Positions 2,070 through 42,941 of a DNA stretch of 44,150 nucleotides are shown here, piece after piece (the first letter of the stretch is position 1; each line of letters starts with the position of its first letter). A program made the translations under genes and the position numbers. The stretch lies in the IMG/VR virus record IMGVR_UViG_3300045988_004957; one strand, written 5' to 3'. The notes under the pieces were generated by a model, which was given only the letters and a program-made list of their open reading frames with translations, was not told the origin of the DNA and made no database searches. The DNA is from a virus (Duplodnaviria > Heunggongvirae > Uroviricota > Caudoviricetes).

Positions 2070-2350
2070 CTAAAGAGGGCCGCATCCAGAAATACGCAAA
2101 AGAGCGATTTGAGGCCCTTGGGGGCCTCGTTCGTAAACTTTCCTACGAGGGGCGTTCCGGCGCTCCCGACCTGCTGGTAATTCTCCCCGGCGGCATCGTC
2201 TGGTTCGTCGAGGTGAAGAAAGACGAAAGCACGAAGCCTGACCCGCACCAGTTACGAGAGCACGAGCGGATGCGTAAGCGTGGTGCAAATGTTTTTGTAG
2301 TTGGTTCGTTCAAACAGGTTGACACCCTAATAGCGAACTATTATAGTTAG
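2066..2350 (+). CDS. VRR-NUC domain nuclease
   Basis: 95 codons from ATG 2066; LLVILPGG..VWFVEVKKDE..Q..E resembles a VRR-NUC / PD-(D/E)XK core; ORF-track start 1886 probably too far upstream. Confidence 0.65.
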   Translation: MTKEGRIQKYAKERFEALGGLVRKLSYEGRSGAPDLLVILPGGIVWFVEVKKDESTKPDPHQLREHERMRKRGANVFVVGSFKQVDTLIANYYS

Positions 2351-4639: not shown

Positions 4640-4643
4640 AGAA

Positions 4644-4670
4644 AAGGCCCCGTTTGGGGCCTTAGTTTTA
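4644..4670. terminator. bidirectional rho-independent terminator
   Basis: AAGGCCCC-GTTT-GGGGCCTT followed by AGTTTTA; lies between convergent plus operon and minus tailspike gene. Confidence 0.7.
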
Positions 4671-6653
4671 AGCCAACGACATTCGGGAGTTAGCGAAAGC
4701 TAAAGCCTGAGCCTGCGTCGTAAACTCAGCGATGAAGAAGTCACTAAATCTGATAACAGCACCTGAACCTCCCCCAGTAGAGACGTACAGACCTACAGTA
4801 CCGTTAGCGGAAGCTTTACCCACCCCAAATGTGCTAATCCACTCACCAGACTTAGTATAAACGCTACCCATAGTAATACCTAACGTTATACTCACATCTG
4901 CTGTTCCTGATTGGAGGCGAGAGTTGACGCCCCACACGTACCATCTACCGGATGTAAGTGTCGTTCTTGACGCTACCATTTCATATAAACCGGACCCAGG
5001 GAATGAAAATTCGGTACATGTAGCGGCGTGAAGTCCGTCAGATACAGTCGAACCGTTAACGGTACCGCTACCAGAAAAATTATGGCTACCTGAGTCAAAT
5101 GTGATAGCTTTTAACTTATTCCCCGTCGGCGTATTAAACACTCGTCCCCTTGTTAAATTTCCTCGTAGAGACAAGTTTGTAGTGGCTATCGTTGCGGATT
5201 GCGACGCGACAGACTCTACAATAACGTCCTTTCCAGAGCTGCCGTTTAAATACACGTCGTGGGCTACGATGGTGCTTTGTGCATCCACTACAATATCCTG
5301 ATTACCATAGGCGTTGTCAAAACGGCAACCATAAGTTACTAAGTTGGAGTTGGATAGCTCGATGTTATTGAGATAAGAATACTCAGCAAAGAATATCGCG
5401 GTGTCTACCAACTTGAGAACTCGCGGTTTTTGCGCCACGCCGTCTACCTGAACAGCCGATGATGTTGCAATAGCTTCCATCCATACATTGGATACCCCGC
5501 ATGGAGATGTAGGACAGTCACCCGATTTGCTTTTTAAATATATCCCGCCGCCTCCGGAAGCCTCAATAATGGAGTCTTTAAGCCACCATCCGCCTATCCC
5601 GCCGTTATCGACAGTGCCGTTTAGGTAGACGGCATAGGTGGAGATGCCGTCGAAGTGGATATTGTAGAGGGTATCGGCCCCGCAATGCATCTCTGAGCCA
5701 CTAATCGCGTAATACCCCCAATCACACGTAGATACCCCAATATTTCTCCATGTATTACCGATGTTCCCGGAAGGCTTCTGAATGGCCTTGTTGATGTTGT
5801 GGATGTATAAATCACTAAAATTATGACGTCCGGAATATTTGTCTGACGGGTCAAAACTAATACCTGCGGCCCCAGTTGTACCTGTACCATCTACGGCAAA
5901 ACCACCGCTGTGTCGAAACTGCCAGTGCGGGGTGGATAAATTAACCTGTACAGTATTTGCATAGTTTGCCGATGGTTTTAATATTGCAGCACCACCTACA
6001 CCTTTTATCTGCTTACTACCCAGAGTGATTGCTTCTGTATACTCACCCGGAGAAACAATTAAGTCGTTTTTAGTTAACGACGCATCTACCGCGGCTTGAA
6101 GGGTAGAAAAGTCGCCAGAATGCTTAATATCATTGTTACGTGCAAGCAAACTCCTTTCGCCACTGCCTATGTTCTTGGCACCTTCCGCGTCAGATAATGT
6201 TTCAACGGTGTTACCGTTGGAAAAAGACACCAGTGAAGCCCCTAAACCGGCGGTACTTGACGCCAAATCATTACGCAAATTTTGGTCTGTCTGCGGCTTC
6301 CAGTTAGCGTTACCGACTGGATTAAAACTCGCGGGAACAACAACCGGCAACGTACCCGCATATGAGTACCACGTCTTGCTTACGGGGTCATACACCACTT
6401 TGTCGCGGTCATTAACTGTTAACGTACCGCCGGTGGAAAAGTCCCACGATACGGGAGAAAAACCGGCATCACGCAACACAGCAGGAAGCGTCTTCTGGGT
6501 CTGCCCGGTAACAGGGTTGGTCGCGTAATCAATATCGGCGCCACCAGCAACCCCGCCGGATTTACCGGTGATAACCTCGGCTTCAAAAATTTGGTGTTTC
6601 TTGACGGTTTGTAAATCCGCCAGGCTTAAAACGTCACCGCATCCGCTTGACAT
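4668..6653 (-). CDS. tailspike with pectate-lyase-like beta-helix
   Basis: 661 aa, Gly/Asn/Ser-rich repetitive segments typical of right-handed beta-helix depolymerases; last gene of tail module. Confidence 0.65.
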   Translation of the reverse strand: MSSGCGDVLSLADLQTVKKHQIFEAEVITGKSGGVAGGADIDYATNPVTGQTQKTLPAVLRDAGFSPVSWDFSTGGTLTVNDRDKVVYDPVSKTWYSYAGTLPVVVPASFNPVGNANWKPQTDQNLRNDLASSTAGLGASLVSFSNGNTVETLSDAEGAKNIGSGERSLLARNNDIKHSGDFSTLQAAVDASLTKNDLIVSPGEYTEAITLGSKQIKGVGGAAILKPSANYANTVQVNLSTPHWQFRHSGGFAVDGTGTTGAAGISFDPSDKYSGRHNFSDLYIHNINKAIQKPSGNIGNTWRNIGVSTCDWGYYAISGSEMHCGADTLYNIHFDGISTYAVYLNGTVDNGGIGGWWLKDSIIEASGGGGIYLKSKSGDCPTSPCGVSNVWMEAIATSSAVQVDGVAQKPRVLKLVDTAIFFAEYSYLNNIELSNSNLVTYGCRFDNAYGNQDIVVDAQSTIVAHDVYLNGSSGKDVIVESVASQSATIATTNLSLRGNLTRGRVFNTPTGNKLKAITFDSGSHNFSGSGTVNGSTVSDGLHAATCTEFSFPGSGLYEMVASRTTLTSGRWYVWGVNSRLQSGTADVSITLGITMGSVYTKSGEWISTFGVGKASANGTVGLYVSTGGGSGAVIRFSDFFIAEFTTQAQALAFANSRMSLA

Positions 6654-14615: not shown

Positions 14616-14722
14616 TCTTTAATCCTTTGGTTAAGAGGTTACGGGTTAAGGTTAATGCGCCAGACGGGAACCACCCGCTTTTCGTGTGCGACACTAGGCG
14701 CAAAATTATTCTATCACATTAC

Positions 14723-14751
14723 TTGCACACCCCAATATAATAGTGTACTAT
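14723..14751 (+). promoter_or_regulatory. sigma70-like promoter with embedded dyad (site 1)
   Basis: TTGCAC-17 bp-TACTAT; dyad AATAGT-GT-ACTATT at 14739..14752; 40 bp upstream of ATG 14793. Confidence 0.55.
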
Positions 14752-14792
14752 TCACTTACACCAACGATGTTATCCCAAACAGGAGCTACACC

Positions 14793-14984
14793 ATGACGGG
14801 TATTACTATGTTCTTCTTAATCATTATCGTTTTAGTTTATTTTATTCCATTTCTCGTGGCGCATATGCGCGACCATAAAGCGAAATTAGCGATATTCATG
14901 GCTAATCTGTTTCTTGGATGGGTTCTGCTGCCGTGGGTATTTATTTTAATCTGGGCTTGCAACTCGAATGTCAAAGAGAAGTGA
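14793..14984 (+). CDS. superinfection-immunity-like small membrane protein
   Basis: 63 aa, two TM helices, FIPFLVAHMRDH ... NLFLGWVLLPW pattern recalls Imm-type proteins; SD AGGAG 7 nt upstream. Confidence 0.5.
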   Translation: MTGITMFFLIIIVLVYFIPFLVAHMRDHKAKLAIFMANLFLGWVLLPWVFILIWACNSNVKEK

Positions 14985-15021
14985 GCTAGTATAGGACAAA
15001 TCCTAAGCACTAGGAATAAAC

Positions 15022-16152
15022 ATGGCCCGGAAGAAAATAACCGACGAACAGTTGCAGGAAGAATTGAACGCCGGTATGAAGAATGTAGATATCGCCCGTA
15101 AATACGGCATCTCAGACCGCGTAATTCGTATCCGTAAAGCGAAGCTGGCTAAGAAAGGCGTGGGCCACGGGCGCGACGTTAGCCACCTTGTGCCAGACGG
15201 CTACAAGATTAAAGGAACGTCGTCACTTGTGGACGAGTTCGGCAACACTAAGTTGCAATGGGTTAAGACTGATACCGACGCCGAACGTCAGGTTGAATTG
15301 ATGAAAGCCGTAATAGAGGGCATGAAGTCAGAGATTACGCCCGTTGCGCCTGTTAAAGCGGCGCGCGCCAAACGTGACGACAAGCTACTCAATCTTTACA
15401 CTGTATCTGATTTCCATCTCGGTATGCTGGCATGGGCCGATGAGAGCGGCGACGACTGGGACATGAAGATTGCAGAAGACCTGTTCTCTCGGTGGTTCGA
15501 CGCGGCGTTTCAGAAAGCACCGGATGCAGGAACAGGAGTTATTAACCTGCTTGGGGACTTCGCACACTTCGATAGTCTTGATGCCGTTACCCCGGAGTCG
15601 CGCCATGTATTAGATGCGGATACTCGCTATCAGAAACTGGTACGTTACATGATTCGTATGGTCCGCCGTGTTGTTGATATGGCGCTGGTTAAGCATCACA
15701 CAGTAAAACTTTTAATCGTTCAAGGTAACCACGACCCTGTTGGCTCCGTATGGCTTGCCGAAATGTTCACGGTTTTATACTCAAACGACAGCCGAGTGAT
15801 TGTTGATACGTCGCCGGATGTTTACAAGATGGTGCAACACGGCAAAACGACGCTGTTCTTCCATCACGGGCATAAAGCACGATTCGACGCTATCGAACCG
15901 GTTATGATTGCCAAGTTCCGTAAAGCGTTCGGCGAGAGTGTTTACAGCTACGCCCACGTAGGCCATCTGCACCACCAGAAGATTGTAGAAAGCCGTAACA
16001 TGATTATTGAGCAACACCGCACCTTAGCGGCTAAAGACGCCTACGCCTCTCGCGGCGGATGGATGTCGGGCCGCAGTGCAAATGTAATTACTTATAGCGC
16101 CGAATATGGCGAGGTCGCACGTTTAACTATTTCACCGGAGATGCTGGGATGA
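15022..16152 (+). CDS. metallophosphoesterase with N-terminal HTH-like region
   Basis: Calcineurin-like motifs DxH (SDFHLG), GDxxD (GDFAHFD), GNHD (QGNHDP), HHGH, GHLHH; basic HTH-like N-terminus. Confidence 0.7.
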   Translation: MARKKITDEQLQEELNAGMKNVDIARKYGISDRVIRIRKAKLAKKGVGHGRDVSHLVPDGYKIKGTSSLVDEFGNTKLQWVKTDTDAERQVELMKAVIEGMKSEITPVAPVKAARAKRDDKLLNLYTVSDFHLGMLAWADESGDDWDMKIAEDLFSRWFDAAFQKAPDAGTGVINLLGDFAHFDSLDAVTPESRHVLDADTRYQKLVRYMIRMVRRVVDMALVKHHTVKLLIVQGNHDPVGSVWLAEMFTVLYSNDSRVIVDTSPDVYKMVQHGKTTLFFHHGHKARFDAIEPVMIAKFRKAFGESVYSYAHVGHLHHQKIVESRNMIIEQHRTLAAKDAYASRGGWMSGRSANVITYSAEYGEVARLTISPEMLG

Positions 16153-16637
16153 AAGATATTGTAATTTTCGATTTAGACGGGACATTGGCCGACGGTACCC
16201 ATCGCTTACACCTGTTACCAAAAGATAACTACGGAGAAACGTGGGCGTGGAAGCCATTTAACATGGCCTGCAAAGATGACGCTCCGATATACGACAATAT
16301 CCATTTGTGTAGCGTACTGTGGCATTCCGGACTTACTATAATTATCCTTACCGGGCGAAGTGATGACGCTGAGGAGGAGACTCGCGAATGGTTACGAGAG
16401 AATAACGTTAGGTTTGACACGCTAATCATGCGCAGCAAACACGACAACAGAAAAGACATCGTAATTAAAGAAGAGGTGTTGCGTGCTTTCGGACTGGAAA
16501 GAATCTTGTGTGCGTTCGACGACTCTCCAGCGGTAATAAAGCATTTCCGTGACCTCGGCATAACCGCACACGCAGTTACCGAATACGACTGTAACGGGAA
16601 CTCTACACACTTAAAACCACACGGGAGCGATAAATAA
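16149..16637 (+). CDS. HAD-superfamily phosphatase
   Basis: N-terminal DxDGT motif (FDLDGTLADGT) and downstream Asp-rich motif; ATGA overlap with upstream gene. Confidence 0.65.
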   Translation: MKDIVIFDLDGTLADGTHRLHLLPKDNYGETWAWKPFNMACKDDAPIYDNIHLCSVLWHSGLTIIILTGRSDDAEEETREWLRENNVRFDTLIMRSKHDNRKDIVIKEEVLRAFGLERILCAFDDSPAVIKHFRDLGITAHAVTEYDCNGNSTHLKPHGSDK

Positions 16638-17191
16638 TGGCTAAGGTAATTATTCTTAATGGCCCCGCGGGTTGCGGGAAAGACACGCTTGCTATGGCGC
16701 TGGTAGAAATGGGCTTTGCGAAAGGAACTACCAGTTTCAAGAATCCAATGTTCAATATTGCTTTGGCAGCGTTAGGCCAGGATGCTTACCACGAATTTCT
16801 CGACGGCTACGACGACCGGGCGCGGAAAGAAAAACCCGAGGGTTTTCTTAATGGGTTGTCCCGCCGCCAGTTAATGATTGCCATTTCTGAGCAATTCATT
16901 AAACCGGTATTCGGCGATGATTATTTCGGTAAGTATCTTGCTGAAAACTTGCCTGACGGCGACGAAGTTTTTGTAGTGTCCGACGGTGGATTCGCCAGTG
17001 AAGTTGCCCCTATCGTCGCCGCGGGGCATGACGTGCGAATCGTCCGCCTCCATCGTGACGGCTATACGTTCATCGGCGATAGCCGTGGCTATCTGTACGA
17101 TGTTAGTGGTGTAAAAGATTACGACACCTACATCATACCGGGTGACGTTAAATCGAACGTTATAGACATTGCTTTAAAATTAGGTTTGTAA
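16637..17191 (+). CDS. P-loop kinase (dNMP-kinase-like)
   Basis: Walker A with GKDT variant (NGPAGCGKDTLA); 184 aa; last gene before terminator. Confidence 0.6.
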   Translation: MAKVIILNGPAGCGKDTLAMALVEMGFAKGTTSFKNPMFNIALAALGQDAYHEFLDGYDDRARKEKPEGFLNGLSRRQLMIAISEQFIKPVFGDDYFGKYLAENLPDGDEVFVVSDGGFASEVAPIVAAGHDVRIVRLHRDGYTFIGDSRGYLYDVSGVKDYDTYIIPGDVKSNVIDIALKLGL

Positions 17192-17195
17192 GAAA

Positions 17196-17222
17196 AAGGC
17201 CCCGAAAGGGGCCTTAGTTTTA
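17196..17222. terminator. bidirectional rho-independent terminator
   Basis: AAGGCCCC-GAAA-GGGGCCTT followed by AGTTTTA; near-identical to the terminator at 4644. Confidence 0.7.
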
Positions 17223-18392
17223 TGCGTAGGTGATACGTTGAATTACGATAGACGACTGGTACTGATTGCCGGTAGCCTGGCCTTCAATGGACTGAGTGAT
17301 TGACTCAGGCCCACCAATCTCAGGTGTAACCGCCGTAAGCTCTGCTCGTTTCAAACTGAAAGACATAGCCCCGTTTACCCCTGCCAGAATAGAGTTAATC
17401 TCTACCTGCTGCTCGTTGATAAACTTCTGAATCATCGCCATGTCGTACAGCTTGCCAGAGATAGAGAATGTGTTAGCTGCGCGTCCACGTTCGACGAACG
17501 CCACGCTACTGTTACCGAGTTCGAACTGCGCGGAAGCTCCGTTGTCGTTGGTGATGGTGAGAGTATCGCAACGCAACGGCGTGGAGCCATCGAACACCGA
17601 CACATCTACCGACGAGAACGGCTCATCGGTGAACGTAACCTGAGAGAAATCAGAGCCAGACGGCGGCGCGGTAAGAATCTCCTGACTCAGGCCGATGAAC
17701 GGGAAGCTGCCGGTGACCATGGCGTTAACCGCCTGCTCTACGGTAAAGCCAGAGATTTCCACACCTTTGGTCAGCATGTACGCGTCCGGGTTACCACACT
17801 GGCCCTTGAACCACGTCAGGATGGAGAACGTCTTACACGCGTTACCGGTTTCCAGCTTGTCGCCAGTTTTTGCGTCAGTGGTTACTGTCTCTGCTGTCAG
17901 CGTGTGCTGAATACCTGCGCCCGTAACTACCAGAGCGGAAACCGCGGTCACGATAAACGGTTTTGCGTTGTCGCCGGTTAAGTCGGTGAACGCAATAAGG
18001 TCGCCAACTTCTACACCGTCAGTAATGAAGCTACCGGCAGCGCGGGTGAATGTTTTACCTGCTGGGGCGACCATAATTTCGGCGCCAGTAATCTCTACCC
18101 CAGCTTGCCACGTAGAAGTCATCGCTCCCGCAAGGAAATCATCCTGGCTACGAGAGCTAAGTTCGATGGCGTACTCCCCGCTAACCTGTTTGTTACCGGT
18201 TCGGATGGATGTAGTTTCACGGCTGCCGTCTAGTTCGTTGGAAGTCAGCGCATCGCGGGTTACGGCAGGAACACCGCCAGTGTTACGCAACGGCGACCAG
18301 ACAGGGTTAGCCGGTGTTACGCCCGGGGTAGTTTCCGCCACATAGAATTGCGCGGTATTCGCGCCCTTAAAAGGAGTTGTAGCCATATTCAC
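17220..18392 (-). CDS. putative major tail protein
   Basis: 390 aa Thr/Gly/Ala-rich ORF at the position of a major tail subunit. Confidence 0.5.
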   Translation of the reverse strand: MNMATTPFKGANTAQFYVAETTPGVTPANPVWSPLRNTGGVPAVTRDALTSNELDGSRETTSIRTGNKQVSGEYAIELSSRSQDDFLAGAMTSTWQAGVEITGAEIMVAPAGKTFTRAAGSFITDGVEVGDLIAFTDLTGDNAKPFIVTAVSALVVTGAGIQHTLTAETVTTDAKTGDKLETGNACKTFSILTWFKGQCGNPDAYMLTKGVEISGFTVEQAVNAMVTGSFPFIGLSQEILTAPPSGSDFSQVTFTDEPFSSVDVSVFDGSTPLRCDTLTITNDNGASAQFELGNSSVAFVERGRAANTFSISGKLYDMAMIQKFINEQQVEINSILAGVNGAMSFSLKRAELTAVTPEIGGPESITQSIEGQATGNQYQSSIVIQRITYA

Positions 18393-24065: not shown

Positions 24066-24208
24066 CAATAGAGTATGGCCCTTCCGAACGCGTCAGCGTA
24101 ACTACACTCAGGACTTACGTCCCGCTCCGTTACCTGCCCGCGCCGCGGTCGCTTGTTCATACTTCACAAGCTCAGGTGGAGCTTATCATATTTTTAGTGA
24201 AAAGTCAA
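24066..24208. repeat. dispersed ~145-bp non-coding repeat, copy A
   Basis: Aligns with 36397..36539 over about 143 bp incl. identical 43-bp block 24143..24185. Confidence 0.9.
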
Positions 24209-24274
24209 CTATTCGAATAGTTTATTCCAACATTTACAATTCGGTGGAATAACTGGAATACGTAAATAAATAGT

Positions 24275-24303
24275 TTGCACACCCCAATATAATAGGGTAC
24301 TAT
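24275..24303 (+). promoter_or_regulatory. sigma70-like promoter with embedded dyad (site 2)
   Basis: TTGCAC-17 bp-TACTAT, near-identical to site 1; dyad at 24291..24304. Confidence 0.55.
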
Positions 24304-24330
24304 TCAGTTAACTTAAACAGGAGGTGAAAA

Positions 24331-24534
24331 ATGTATGCAATTTGCGAAGTAGTTCAAGAGTTCGATGAAGAGTTCGACGGTGACTTGTGCCGTGTTAAAA
24401 AGGTTCTGCAGGTTTTCCCTGACGCAATGTCTGCTTACAGGGCATTAGATATATTTGAACCTGGAAGATACGGGGATTATGACACTGTTCTGAGGGTTGT
24501 CCATGAGCAGGATTTAAACACAAGATTCCGTTGA
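24331..24534 (+). CDS. hypothetical protein (moron-like, 67 aa)
   Basis: Lone plus-strand ORF with SD AGGAGGTGA, own promoter and terminator inside minus-strand structural module. Confidence 0.55.
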   Translation: MYAICEVVQEFDEEFDGDLCRVKKVLQVFPDAMSAYRALDIFEPGRYGDYDTVLRVVHEQDLNTRFR

Positions 24535-25025: not shown

Positions 25026-26101
25026 TATTCCCCTTTCAGATAATCAGCAACACGTTTATCGAGTTCCGCCATCTGCTTAAGCGTGAGCGGATTCCCGAAA
25101 CCATCTACAGATATTACGCGAAACTCTTCCGGCGATATACCGCTGTTACGGAAAATCTTACCTCGCACCGGGCCGAGCGCCTGGTCCTGAAACCACGCCG
25201 GTTGTTGTTTAAGGAACTCGTAGTAAGTGGTGTCTGCGCTTACCTGAGTGCCACCTTCCGCGCCTTTAGCCGCGCGTTTTGCGCCTTTATCGAGGAAGTC
25301 GAACTCGGAACTGATTACCGGAGCCGTGCACGACCGGCAGTTCGGATGGGCTGGGGGCATCGGCCCCTTACCAATTTCCCACGTCATCCCGTCTCTGACC
25401 CTGCAAATCGTACTGGTGCGGCTGTCAAGCGTTGACACCCACTCGTACTTCTCGATGATGTCGTCGTTCTGGCGGTACGTCTCGTTACGGGCCTCGTTGG
25501 ATACGTGGGACAGCGCGGTGCGGATTACCGTAGTCGCGTTACGTTCTGAGATGTCGGCTAGTCCACCAGCGCCAACAACATTCTTAACAATCTGCCGTGT
25601 GGTTTGACCTTGCACAAAGCCCATCTTAACTCCAGTTACAAGACGTGCTACTTCCGTTTCGCCCCATCCAGACATCAGCTTGGTGAAATCAACGGGCTTG
25701 TCGCTCAATGATAATGGTTGAAACTCGGCAGCGGACCATACCTGCTCAGCGGTAGGCGTAACAAATTCCGCGTCTACGTTGGCGGTCAGTGTCTTTACGT
25801 TCCACTCAGCCTCGTACGCCGCCAGTTCCTTAAGGTCGTCTGTTAGCTTTGTTTGCCAGTCACCCGTAATACCGGTTAGTGCTTCTTCCAGGTCGCGTAA
25901 CAGTTTATTCAGTCGCGCAGTGCTGCGACCGTCGTCACCGAATAACAGCACCTGCCGTTTGATTTCATCCCTTATCTCCTGAATGAACGGCGTGAGGTCT
26001 TTCACCTCACCGGATGCGGTGCGTTGCAGCCATATCTGATGGCTGATTAGGGATGTAAGTAAGCTCATAGATAAACCCTGTGGCGCTAAAGTTAATAGCA
26101 T
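25025..26101 (-). CDS. head morphogenesis protein (minor head)
   Basis: 358 aa ORF immediately downstream of portal, as for Mu F / SPP1 gp7-type proteins. Confidence 0.55.
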   Translation of the reverse strand: MLLTLAPQGLSMSLLTSLISHQIWLQRTASGEVKDLTPFIQEIRDEIKRQVLLFGDDGRSTARLNKLLRDLEEALTGITGDWQTKLTDDLKELAAYEAEWNVKTLTANVDAEFVTPTAEQVWSAAEFQPLSLSDKPVDFTKLMSGWGETEVARLVTGVKMGFVQGQTTRQIVKNVVGAGGLADISERNATTVIRTALSHVSNEARNETYRQNDDIIEKYEWVSTLDSRTSTICRVRDGMTWEIGKGPMPPAHPNCRSCTAPVISSEFDFLDKGAKRAAKGAEGGTQVSADTTYYEFLKQQPAWFQDQALGPVRGKIFRNSGISPEEFRVISVDGFGNPLTLKQMAELDKRVADYLKGE

Positions 26102-26110
26102 ACTATAAGA

Positions 26111-31615: not shown

Positions 31616-31644
31616 AATATAATAGGGTCGAGGATAATAGTCAA
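31616..31644 (-). promoter_or_regulatory. sigma70-like promoter for small-gene cluster
   Basis: Minus strand TTGACT-17 bp-TATATT immediately downstream of the lysis-cassette terminator. Confidence 0.5.
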
Positions 31645-31674
31645 CTAGTCATCACAGAAAATAGATAAAAAAAA

Positions 31675-31702
31675 TCCCGGCTGGGTCAGGGCCGGGATAA
31701 AA
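31675..31702 (-). terminator. rho-independent terminator after lysis cassette
   Basis: Stem TCCCGGC / GCCGGGA with 9-nt loop flanked on minus strand by T4 and T8 runs. Confidence 0.7.
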
Positions 31703-33028: not shown

Positions 33029-33329
33029 TACCACCTCCGCGGCGTGCGATATATTCTCCGGCGACAATGCCAGAGAGACGGGAATAAATTGGCATCCAGA
33101 GAATAGCAATGATGAATCCAAGGCCCGCTATTTCGCGTTCACCTGCGATACCGAACCATTGAGCGGCGAGAGGCGCACCGAATACGGCGCACGCAAAGCC
33201 AGTGGCGAGAAAACAGAGAGCATCGACAGGGCCGGTAATAGTGGCTTTGTGTTGCCGTAAGCCTATTACCCCACCAGCTAATGCGGCAGCGAGAAGCCAC
33301 CCCGTCACTGTTTCAGTAAATTTATCCAA
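33021..33329 (-). CDS. putative holin
   Basis: 102 aa with TM helices and charged C-terminus, first gene of lysis cassette; start codon is TTG. Confidence 0.5.
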   Translation of the reverse strand: MDKFTETVTGWLLAAALAGGVIGLRQHKATITGPVDALCFLATGFACAVFGAPLAAQWFGIAGEREIAGLGFIIAILWMPIYSRLSGIVAGEYIARRGGGNE

Positions 33330-33375
33330 GATGAAGCCACCCCGTCACTGTTTCAGTAAATTTATCCAAGATGAA
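33293..33375. repeat. 40-bp tandem direct repeat (2 copies) across the holin start
   Basis: 33293..33332 identical to 33333..33372, next 3 nt also repeat. Confidence 0.9.
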
Positions 33376-35088: not shown

Positions 35089-35118
35089 CTCTGCCTCTCC
35101 TCTCGTTTGTGTAAATGA

Positions 35119-35147
35119 ATAGTAGACTATTCTATCCCAGTGTGCAA
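35119..35147 (-). promoter_or_regulatory. sigma70-like promoter with embedded dyad (site 3)
   Basis: Minus strand TTGCAC-17 bp-TACTAT; perfect dyad AATAGT-AG-ACTATT at 35118..35131. Confidence 0.5.
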
Positions 35148-35283: not shown

Positions 35284-35457
35284 TCAATTAGTAACCTTTT
35301 GACCTGTTACACCACCTGTTATACCCGCCCTTGCTTGCACACCAGCTTTCCACGCCCGCCACGCAAGACGCGTCTTAACGTTCAGGTACTCTTTCTTCGA
35401 ACCCTTGTTAACCGGCAGCCCCTCGACGATGGCCCATCGTTCAAATGCTTCTCTCAT
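35284..35457 (-). CDS. hypothetical protein
   Basis: Start taken at ATG 35457; basic. Confidence 0.35.
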   Translation of the reverse strand: MREAFERWAIVEGLPVNKGSKKEYLNVKTRLAWRAWKAGVQARAGITGGVTGQKVTN

Positions 35458-35948: not shown

Positions 35949-36167
35949 TTATTTAAAGTAGATAGCAAATTTCTTGTAACCCGCTGGCTCGTTACGAAGT
36001 CCTTTACCGTTAGCGAAACGTTGTACGTTAACAAAATCATTTTCATCCATTCCGTCGGTGTCGAACGTAAAGAAGTTGCGCTTGTTCCCGATAATTACGC
36101 GCTCTGAGATATCGATGCCGTAAACTTCTTTGATTGCGGAAACTACGCTTGCGGTCGCTTTGTTCAT
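35949..36167 (-). CDS. hypothetical protein
   Basis: 72 aa, first gene after promoter site 4; SD AAGGAA. Confidence 0.45.
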   Translation of the reverse strand: MNKATASVVSAIKEVYGIDISERVIIGNKRNFFTFDTDGMDENDFVNVQRFANGKGLRNEPAGYKKFAIYFK

Positions 36168-36201
36168 TTCTAAATTCCTTATGTCTCGTTCCGATAAGTG
36201 A

Positions 36202-36230
36202 ATAGTATCCTATTATGTTGGGGTGTGCAA
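36202..36230 (-). promoter_or_regulatory. sigma70-like promoter with embedded dyad (site 4)
   Basis: Minus strand TTGCACACCCCAACATAATAGGATACTAT; dyad at 36201..36214. Confidence 0.55.
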
Positions 36231-36396: not shown

Positions 36397-36539
36397 CAAT
36401 AGATTATGGCCCTTCCGAATGCAGGCAGCGACACTACACTCAGTGCTGACGCACCGCTCCGTTTCCTGCCGCACCGCGGTCGCTTGTTCATACTTCACAA
36501 GCTCAGGTGGAGCTTAGCACATTTCTTAGTAAAAGTCAA
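36397..36539. repeat. dispersed ~145-bp non-coding repeat, copy B
   Basis: Paralogue of 24066..24208; identical 43-bp block at 36474..36516. Confidence 0.9.
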
Positions 36540-36646
36540 TACCATTAGCATCTTTTGTATATTAGTAACTTTGTGTGGTGTTTTGGTTGCTTTTACATTC
36601 ACGCTATCCTATACTCGTTTTCACCAAACAAACAGGAGATATAAAA

Positions 36647-36829
36647 ATGCAGCATTACATGACACAGAATGAAGTGGCTGAACGTATCGGGGTGACACGT
36701 CAAACAATTAATAACTGGTTGCGCAGCGGTAAATTCCCTGATTGCTGTATTAAGGTTATGGGTCGCCGTTTACCAGGAACATTTGACCGTAATAAAGTTG
36801 AAGCATGGATTAAGGAGAACGTGAAATGA
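36647..36829 (+). CDS. AlpA/excisionase-like HTH DNA-binding protein
   Basis: 60 aa from ATG 36647 (SD CAGGAG); GKFP ... W pattern of AlpA-type HTH proteins. Confidence 0.55.
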   Translation: MQHYMTQNEVAERIGVTRQTINNWLRSGKFPDCCIKVMGRRLPGTFDRNKVEAWIKENVK

Positions 36830-39800: not shown

Positions 39801-39820
39801 AAGGGGCTTTAAGCCCCTTC
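39801..39820. terminator. bidirectional hairpin terminator
   Basis: AAGGGGCTT-T-AAGCCCCTT between convergent genes; overlaps 3' end of XRE gene. Confidence 0.6.
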
Positions 39821-40024
39821 ACCTAACGCCAGCCACTTGGCGTCTACTTCCAGAACTTCCGCCAGTTTGAACAGCGTTGCCGGGCGGACGTCCTGAGTTA
39901 CTCCAAGTGCCAGTTGGTTAATCGCGCCCTGGGAAACGCCGGTCAGGGCCGCCAAACGGCGCTGGGAGATGCCGAGTTCTTTACGGCGTTGTTCTACACG
40001 GATACCTAGTTCAGATGGTTGCAT
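39809..40024 (-). CDS. XRE-family HTH transcriptional regulator
   Basis: HTH signature LGISQRRLAALTGVSQGAINQLALG; SD AAGGAG; divergent from replication operon. Confidence 0.7.
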   Translation of the reverse strand: MQPSELGIRVEQRRKELGISQRRLAALTGVSQGAINQLALGVTQDVRPATLFKLAEVLEVDAKWLALGEGA

Positions 40025-40044: not shown

Positions 40045-40117
40045 TTGATATGTGAATAGTACCATATTAATTATTTTAGAAAAGCCCATTGACATGTGAA
40101 TAGTTCGCTATTATAGT
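40045..40117 (+). promoter_or_regulatory. two tandem promoters with dyad operators (sites 5 and 6)
   Basis: TTGATA-17 bp-TAATTA (weak -10) and TTGACA-17 bp-TATAGT; dyads at 40055..40068 and 40099..40112. Confidence 0.55.
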
Positions 40118-42727: not shown

Positions 42728-42927
42728 TTCAAGTAAATGAAATGCCGACTGATAAAGATTTTTTGATGGTATGGCGCTGGGATGGGTATCTACACTCGGA
42801 ATCGTTCACGTTCTTGAACGGTACCATGATGCGATACGACCCTGTAGAGGATGAGTTCGAACCGGCCGATATGCTTAATTTCGAGAACATAATCCCTATT
42901 GCAAAATTTTATTTGACACCTGAATAG
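42724..42927 (+). CDS. hypothetical protein
   Basis: ATG 42724 overlapping nuclease stop (ATGA); 67 aa. Confidence 0.45.
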   Translation: MIQVNEMPTDKDFLMVWRWDGYLHSESFTFLNGTMMRYDPVEDEFEPADMLNFENIIPIAKFYLTPE

Positions 42928-42941
42928 TTAGCTATTATAGT
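42913..42941 (+). promoter_or_regulatory. sigma70-like promoter with embedded dyad (site 7)
   Basis: TTGACA-17 bp-TATAGT; dyad 42923..42936 in spacer; overlaps 3' end of upstream ORF. Confidence 0.55.

Follow-up and report, generated by a model that had tools for sequence, protein, structure and literature searches.

The window, i.e., the whole stretch of 44,150 bp analyzed here, is essentially the whole genome of an Escherichia Kagunavirus (subfamily Guernseyvirinae), showing 94-97% identity to phages SHAK7858 and 22664BS2 and being co-linear with several hundred records of Escherichia and Salmonella phages. It is reverse-complemented with respect to most of these records, and its first base lies inside the DNA polymerase gene. 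According to the gene annotation of a close relative, the layout is that of a virulent siphovirus and the long ORFs of the window encode tail proteins, tape measure, helicase-primase and DNA polymerase, while no RNA polymerase, integrase or CI-type repressor is found among the 83 genes annotated in this 94-97% identical relative. Furthermore, the 1.9-kb region around the XRE gene (39809..40024, minus strand) had no match among 5,426 complete E. coli genomes, and thus no prophage relatives are evident. The SHAK7858 record (OR594183.1) is placed in GenBank under Autographiviridae/Kayfunavirus and named vB_EcoM, a taxonomy error of the record, as the genome is that of a Kagunavirus-type siphovirus; the XRE gene is unannotated in it.

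At 14723 on the plus strand begins a promoter-like element, TTGCAC(14723-14728)-17-TACTAT(14746-14751), whose -10 is covered by the 14-bp dyad AATAG-N4-CTATT (14739..14752) and which heads a superinfection-immunity gene and an exonuclease/kinase cassette (14793-17191). An exact search of the window with the pattern AATAGTNNVCTATT returned nine strand-matches at seven loci (2329, 14739, 24291, 35118, 36201, 40099, and 42923), against an expectation of 0.01 obtained from 100 shuffles. The enrichment is limited to the 4-bp spacing, as ATAG-N4-CTAT occurs eight times in the window, while ATAG and CTAT separated by 2, 3, 5, 6, 7, and 8 nt occur 0, 1, 0, 1, 0, and 0 times, respectively. The preliminary description had listed seven dyad sites. 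Six of them are exact and the remaining one, at 40055-40068 (AATAGTACCATATT), has one mismatch to the claimed pattern; in addition, an exact site in a TTGACA-17-TATAGT promoter (AATAGCGAACTATT at 2329..2342) had been overlooked, so that the list was not complete. One-mismatch dyads are also present at 24200, 26094 (inside a coding start) and 31636.

Two promoter contexts can be distinguished. In class A (TTGCAC-17-TACTAT; 14723+, 24275+, 36230-, and 35147-) the dyad lies over the -10, while in class B (TTGACA-17-TATAGT; 2319+, 40089+, and 42913+) it lies within the spacer. Class A further comprises TTGCAC(24275-24280)-17-TACTAT(24298-24303) with the dyad at 24291..24304, which heads a single 67-aa gene (24331-24534), the minus-strand TTGCAC(36230-36225)-17-TACTAT(36207-36202) with the dyad at 36201..36214, which heads a leftward operon of small, early-type ORFs starting at 36167, and a diverged minus-strand copy, TTGCAC(35147-35142)-17-TACTAT(35124-35119), with the dyad at 35118..35131, which heads a run of small ORFs extending into the lysis genes. 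The class B promoters, all on the plus strand, are TTGACA(2319-2324)-17-TATAGT(2342-2347), ahead of an operon with a 63-aa gene, helicase and primase, TTGACA(40089-40094)-17-TATAGT(40112-40117), with the dyad at 40099..40112 and ahead of an operon with a 75-aa gene, a 172-aa gene and an exonuclease, and TTGACA(42913-42918)-17-TATAGT(42936-42941), with the dyad at 42923..42936 and ahead of the genes for the SSB/annealing protein and DNA polymerase. Judging from homology with the annotated relative, the gene sets of class B make up the replication arm, and those of class A are the leftward small ORFs running into the lysis genes, the superinfection-immunity/nucleotide-metabolism cassette and the lone 67-aa gene.

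In a generic promoter scan the class B sites at 40089 and 42913 scored 11/12, and direct reading gives the same TTGACA-17-TATAGT arrangement at 2319. Class A, with a consensus match of 7/12, was not flagged, because TTGCAC matches the -35 consensus at 3/6 positions; its reading as a promoter is drawn from the conserved 17-bp spacing and the common leader. The spacing of a TTGC-type hexamer-17-TAnnnT is kept across genera, and the leader (TTACACC/TTATCG) begins 5-6 nt after the assigned -10 in both classes, therefore tracking the -10 and not the dyad. We infer that the eight dyad-bearing sites are active promoters. The earlier claim of a sigma70-like promoter around every dyad agrees with the hexamers of class B and with the conserved spacing of class A, but not with the plus-strand TTGATA promoter proposed at 40055, a site that probably serves the minus-strand XRE promoter instead. 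The shared element of ~33 bp had also been noticed; a 32-nt sequence, TTGCACACCCCAAYATAATAGKRTACTATTCA, is exact at 14723(+), 24275(+), and 36230(-), and the copy at 35147(-) is diverged.

The position of the dyad relative to the promoter is not fixed. A 6-bp shift in register separates class A (centre ~-12.5) from class B (centre ~-18.5), and the -10 starts at dyad position 8 in class A, 14 in class B and 11 at site 16769 of Jerseyvirus S101. An alternative -10 for class A, i.e., TATAAT, CATAAT or TAGAAT ending at dyad position 3, was considered and rejected. The promoter scan does find ATCACA-17-TATAAT in one class A copy, but no -35 is conserved there in the other copies, and the alternative hexamer is also missing at the Jerseyvirus site 16769; the reading as TTGC-type hexamer-17-TAnnnT was retained. 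When TTGCACACCCC was inspected by eye, neither a sigma-54 nor a sigma-32 nor a MerR-type reading fitted; a MerR-type regulator acting on the spacer needs 19-20 bp, and such a mechanism is excluded because the spacers here are 17 bp (18 bp in some relatives). Of the four class A copies, only the three situated between divergent genes retain a CCCCAA block in the spacer (14729-14735, 24281-24287, and 36218-36224); at 35147, where the copy is co-directional, the sequence at this position is variable. Read on the opposite strand, the block is TTGGGG, a possible -35 of back-to-back late promoters.

Conservation of the dyad and the XRE protein

For comparison, we used 37 IMG/VR Kagunavirus loci fetched by the XRE protein together with loci fetched by the class B pattern, which gave ~146 distinct promoter contexts among the relatives (86 of class B and 60 of class A). 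Both 5-bp half-sites are invariant across the 146 contexts, carrying maximal information, while the central 4 bp carry little, with 17 different 4-bp variants in class B. The bases from the -35 to the dyad vary as well, the class B distance being 10 in 67 contexts and 11 in 19. Sigma-70 makes no base-specific contact with the promoter spacer. Part of the spacer is thus under strong purifying selection, since a half-site is invariant where sigma-70 contacts no bases. Invariant halves with a free centre and free flanks fit the site of a dimeric protein rather than an RNA-polymerase contact, as had been proposed from the sequence, and the register of the dyad differs by class and by genus. One argument offered for this proposal, namely that the dyad appears in both orientations, is of limited value, as orientation means little in a palindrome.

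The motif is not confined to Kagunavirus. The dyad is present at orthologous promoters in Jerseyvirus, in line with what the preliminary description expected of related phages, and site 16769 of S101 (TTGCAT-N7-dyad, -10 TATTAT) represents a third register. Exact dyads number 7-8 per genome in Kagunavirus, 4-5 in Jerseyvirus and 0 in Cornellvirus SP-031. In IMG/VR, 62 stretches contain the composite class B pattern, nearly all of them on contigs of 24-45 kb and mostly of 41-45 kb, which is the size of these phages. In Kagunavirus the half-site extends to TGAATAG. The free flank base beside the dyad is G in this genus and T in Jerseyvirus, which parallels two types of XRE recognition helix, a parallel that is confounded with phylogeny.

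The XRE protein (71 aa; 39809..40024, minus strand) is the proposed dyad-binding repressor. It carries an HTH_3 domain (PF01381, E 3.9e-13, above the curated cut-off), and its PHROG matches are transcriptional repressors. The best solved relatives by phmmer are 434 Cro, followed by 434 repressor and P22 c2; 434 Cro, also of 71 aa, aligns end to end with it (residues 6-68, E 8.5e-6). A word-indexed protein search with the XRE protein returned close XRE relatives only and no characterized homologue. The AF2 model is helical (pLDDT 81) and its Foldseek matches were HipB, C.BclI, 434 Cro/repressor, SinR and P22 c2, all with E > 1e-3; the predicted fold matches small dimeric dyad binders. No Kagunavirus-like variant shows a change in the recognition helix, GVSQGAINQLALG, even where overall identity is as low as 77%. 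Between Kagunavirus and Jerseyvirus the protein is 49% identical and the helix differs at four positions, yet the 5-bp dyad core is the same.

The gene is monocistronic and is followed by a terminator (39820-39800). Its 120-bp divergent control region holds the perfect dyad at 40099 and the weakened one at 40055, and this two-dyad layout between XRE and the divergent operon is conserved in 37 Kagunavirus loci and in S101. The degenerate dyad (40055..40068; AATATGGTACTATT on the minus strand, one mismatch) precedes the XRE start codon by 31-44 nt. When read in the direction of XRE, the site is GGTACTATTCA, a class A -10 context, and in S101 a TTGCGT is found 17 bp upstream of the equivalent site; 40055 is therefore best read as part of a minus-strand XRE promoter. 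It would overlap the core or the start site of this promoter and is a putative autoregulatory operator, O2. The perfect dyad at 40099, in turn, abuts the -35 of a candidate minus-strand XRE promoter, TTCACA(40100-40095)-16-TAAAAT(40078-40073).

In Cornellvirus SP-031, TS6 and Hafnia TS33 the XRE gene is kept, while dyads are found only in a degenerate form, TAWTAS-N4-STAWTA, with eight matches vs. 1.13 expected; the pattern is AT-rich and promoter-like, so that this is a soft statistic. SP-031 has neither a perfect dyad nor the AlpA-like protein, and its XRE is diverged and encoded directly upstream of the helicase-primase, a pattern that is suggestive but soft, being compatible with XRE as the binder and falling short of proof. 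With regard to gene order, the XRE gene of FSL SP-031, TS6 and Hafnia TS33 (L103, L108, and L109), which have no AlpA-like gene, immediately precedes the helicase-primase gene on the same strand. In Kagunavirus and Jerseyvirus it lies downstream of helicase-primase as a cassette of its own, encoded on the opposite strand. Overall, we consider the 71-aa XRE protein the probable binder of the dyad, with some reserve. Of the two candidates named earlier, XRE and the AlpA-like protein, the former had already been put first, and this preference is strengthened by its HTH_3 domain, its closeness to 434 Cro and its invariant helix, the corresponding helix of the AlpA-like protein being variable.

Other readings of the dyad

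The dyad could be read by another factor, either an uncharacterized small phage protein or a host transcription factor. Several small proteins of unassigned function are highly conserved in these phages, and the 63-aa product encoded at 2381-2572 is 98% identical across genera and is absent from SP-031, as is the perfect dyad, sharing its phyletic pattern with the AlpA-like protein; a dyad core that is invariant across genera would fit such a very conserved reader. However, the model of the 63-aa protein is a small SH3/Tudor-like beta-barrel whose fold matches are weak and generic and include no known dyad-reading fold, while two dyads in the control region of XRE are explained most simply by XRE itself. 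As for the host, we know of no E. coli regulator with an AATAG-N4-CTATT consensus; in a collection of genomes, a 14-base pattern has thousands of matches by chance. A reader of this kind seems quite unlikely to us.

The AlpA-like HTH_17 protein (36647..36829, plus strand) would, as the alternative candidate, bind the dyad and regulate the promoters of both classes. It is a DNA-binding HTH protein, its identity between Kagunavirus and Jerseyvirus is 82% vs. 49% for XRE, it is missing from Cornellvirus SP-031 together with the perfect dyad, and its gene lies ~430 bp from the 36201 dyad. On the other hand, its helix varies within Kagunavirus (VTRQTINNWLR, VSPMTLNRWLR, and VSTMTLNRWLR), although the dyads and their flanks are unchanged, and the promoter candidate of its own operon with helicase-primase, TTGCTT(36587-36592)-17-TATACT(36610-36615), has no dyad. 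Moreover, the protein has no significant solved relative, and small proteins of the HTH_17/excisionase type typically bind direct repeats as monomers and not 14-bp palindromes, which also counts against it. We hold this role of the AlpA-like protein to be decidedly unlikely.

A third possibility dispenses with a trans-acting factor and takes the dyad as intrinsic to the promoter, either as a promoter of a phage RNA polymerase or as the by-product of a symmetric, bidirectional -10. The former has been published. Two genome papers give PHIRE annotations of this kind: in that on Golestan there are seven "conserved promoter sequences", two of which form a pair before the XRE gene, and in that on fBC-Eco01 there are seven "phage RNAP promoters", whose consensus is tgAATAGTa-ccTATTat-T. 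These motifs are the same sequences as our dyads, at orthologous positions, so that the dyad motif is not new and had already been catalogued in both papers. However, they were credited to an RNA polymerase of the phage, an enzyme for which these genomes have no gene; none is found in the annotation of the close relative or among the long ORFs of the window. Dyad symmetry, the missing polymerase and a link to an HTH protein are all unmentioned in the two papers, and an RNA-seq paper on the relative K1B4 gives coarse gene classes only. We rejected the published reading, given that there is no polymerase gene, that the motif is palindromic and not asymmetric, and that its register to the -35 and -10 is variable. 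With regard to a symmetric -10, the class B sequence CTATTATAGT shows, when read by eye, TATAGT on one strand and, on the complementary one, a perfect TATAAT, and in class A the right half-site is its -10. The opposite-strand TATAAT of class B, however, has no usable -35, the left half-site lies in the spacer without sigma-70 base contact and is still invariant, and the register of the dyad to the -10 takes three values. An intrinsic element in either form is in our opinion very unlikely. Finally, a recent duplication of promoter cassettes with a functionless palindrome is hardly credible, since the halves are invariant within and between genomes and across two genera while the nearby spacer and centre have diverged, even though the genome clearly contains repeated modules of promoter and leader.

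A proposed repressor model and its relation to known systems

The reading that we prefer is that the dyad is the operator of a dimeric HTH repressor of the phage, most likely XRE, which would shut the class A and class B promoters by occlusion; taken as a whole, we give this model an even chance. Host sigma-70 polymerase would start the infection from the three strong class B and the four class A promoters, and as XRE accumulates, a dimer would occupy each dyad and shut the promoter. Occlusion is suggested because the dyad centres (~-12.5 in class A and ~-18.5 in class B) fall inside the polymerase footprint. The perfect and the weakened dyad in the divergent control region of XRE would provide autoregulation, the weaker proximal site letting XRE limit its own synthesis. 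Promoters without a full dyad would escape, namely those of AlpA/helicase-primase, the extended -10 tail promoter (14713-14708) and the late promoters at 31644 and 24208.

The direction of regulation is rather confidently predicted to be repression. We favour it over activation since the centres of the dyads fall within the polymerase footprint and on different helix faces; an activator model is disfavoured on the same grounds, with centres at ~-12.5, ~-15.5, and ~-18.5. Activation of the divergent tail promoter is likewise disfavoured, as the centre shifts from ~-44.5 in Kagunavirus to ~-42.5 in Jerseyvirus. In a broader version, which we find unlikely, XRE would be a Cro-like genome-wide timer in virulent phages and the class A modules at 14723, 24275, and 36230 would be two-way early/late switches. 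Here CCCCAA/TTGGGG would serve as an opposite-strand -35, back-to-back with late or tail promoters such as TGaTAGAAT at 14713-14708, and binding of XRE would turn off transcription in the early direction and thereby release the late promoter on the opposite side, or even stimulate it from ~-44. If this is true, one protein-operator pair would drive the early-to-late transition without a dedicated late activator.

The closest known parallel to the proposed repressor is phage 434. The 434 operators are dyads of 14 bp in which the outer bases are conserved and the centre is variable and not contacted. The dyad described here has the same length, the same conserved outer bases and a similarly variable centre. 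Like XRE, 434 Cro is a 71-aa single-domain XRE HTH protein (39% identity in structural alignment), its operators overlap core promoter elements, and its gene is divergent from the neighbouring operon. The half-sites differ (ACAA in 434, AATAG here), and the 434 operators are clustered at two triple operators, whereas here they are spread over eight or more promoters. Furthermore, unlike 434, the annotation of the relative contains no partner CI repressor, integrase or lysogeny switch. The lack of a CI partner and an integrase, together with the lack of a match in E. coli genomes, points to a Cro-like mode of working outside any immunity switch.

Phage repressors with many operators are known from P1 (C1), mycobacteriophage L5 (gp71, with its stoperators) and phiC31 (conserved inverted repeats). 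These resemble the present case in that one small repressor has many genome-wide sites at or near early promoters. The three phages are temperate, however, and their repressors maintain lysogeny, and the sites of P1 and L5 are asymmetric, while the phage studied here is virulent and has perfect dyads in promoter cores. The C proteins C.AhdI, C.BclI, and C.Esp1396I are also similar to XRE in size and fold, and the C-boxes, a strong and a weak dyad upstream of the protein's own gene, resemble the XRE region, which suggests a concentration-dependent autoregulation. In contrast to C proteins, there are no restriction-modification genes here, the dyad sequence is different, and sites are found at many other promoters.

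The motif itself was already known, and to reinterpret it as marking a regulon of Cro-type operators in a virulent phage seems reasonable and useful. The published "phage RNA-polymerase promoter" motif would most likely have to be reassigned as the operator of a 434-Cro-like repressor on host-polymerase promoters, which would also correct how the several hundred genomes of these phages in the databases are annotated. Guernseyvirinae (Kagunavirus and Jerseyvirus) are among the phages most often isolated for therapy and biocontrol of E. coli and Salmonella; their transcriptional programme is so far undescribed, and the operator model offers a cheaply testable scheme of temporal control. In addition, the compact set of repressor, operator and promoter (a strong TTGACA-17-TATAGT with a 14-bp operator in the spacer) might find further use in phage engineering. 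No concept is overturned, repression of the Cro type through occlusion of promoters being textbook knowledge, and the proposed circuit is sensible but fairly ordinary.

Late promoters, partial dyads and repeated elements

Two partial dyads on the minus strand are associated with late-type promoters. That at 31636..31649 (ACTAGTTGACTATT) contains the -35 of TTGACT(31644-31639)-17-TATATT(31621-31616) and lies a short distance downstream of a hairpin resembling a terminator, seen in the sequence at ~31665-31690. The other, at 24200..24213 (AATAGTTGACTTTT), is upstream of the spanin and head genes and overlaps the -35 of TTGACT(24208-24203)-17-TAAGCT(24185-24180), which is preceded by TG. Both may be weak operators or part of a separate GGAATAR late-promoter motif. 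GGAATA(R) repeats are found at minus-strand late promoters (23464, 24213, and 31649), just upstream of or overlapping a -35-like TTGNCT/TTGACA, with an example before the scaffold gene (GGAATAGTTGCC...GGAATAATTTATTCTTGACA), and are conserved in Kagunavirus, Jerseyvirus and Cornellvirus (orthologues in L041 and L103-L107). They may represent a separate late-activator motif. At 24213 an everted palindrome, CTATTC|GAATAG, is observed.

A further dyad on the minus strand, at 35287..35300, has decayed in the window (two mismatches) and is perfect in relatives (L001, L104, and L106), where two GGTGTAACAGG direct repeats precede it and a hairpin, CGCTGCTACACAGCAGCG, follows; both the repeats and the hairpin are retained in the window (35287-35335). 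The one-mismatch dyad at 26094-26107 (TATAGTATGCTATT) lies across the start codon of a head-morphogenesis gene, is identical in Jerseyvirus and probably owes its conservation to a coding or ribosome-binding context; the same element is given as a PHIRE promoter in the Golestan paper.

The tail operon has an extended -10 candidate, TGaTAGAAT (14708-14713, minus strand), which is back-to-back with the class A promoter and conserved in three genera; the TAGAATAATTTTGCG block is common to Kagunavirus and Cornellvirus. A repeat of ~140 bp (24066-24208 and 36397-36539, 89-92% identical) comprises a minus-strand promoter, TTGACTTTT...TGnTAAGCT, a hairpin leader (AAGCTCCACCTGAGCTT) and a small-ORF start, MNKRPR. 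The holin/small-ORF region contains a perfect 40-bp tandem duplication at 33293-33372 (GAAGCCACCCCGTCACTGTTTCAGTAAATTTATCCAAGAT x2). Finally, near-identical bidirectional terminator hairpins (AAAAGGCCCCnnnnGGGGCCTTAGTTTTA) at 4642-4673 and 17194-17225 close both convergences of plus- and minus-strand gene blocks.
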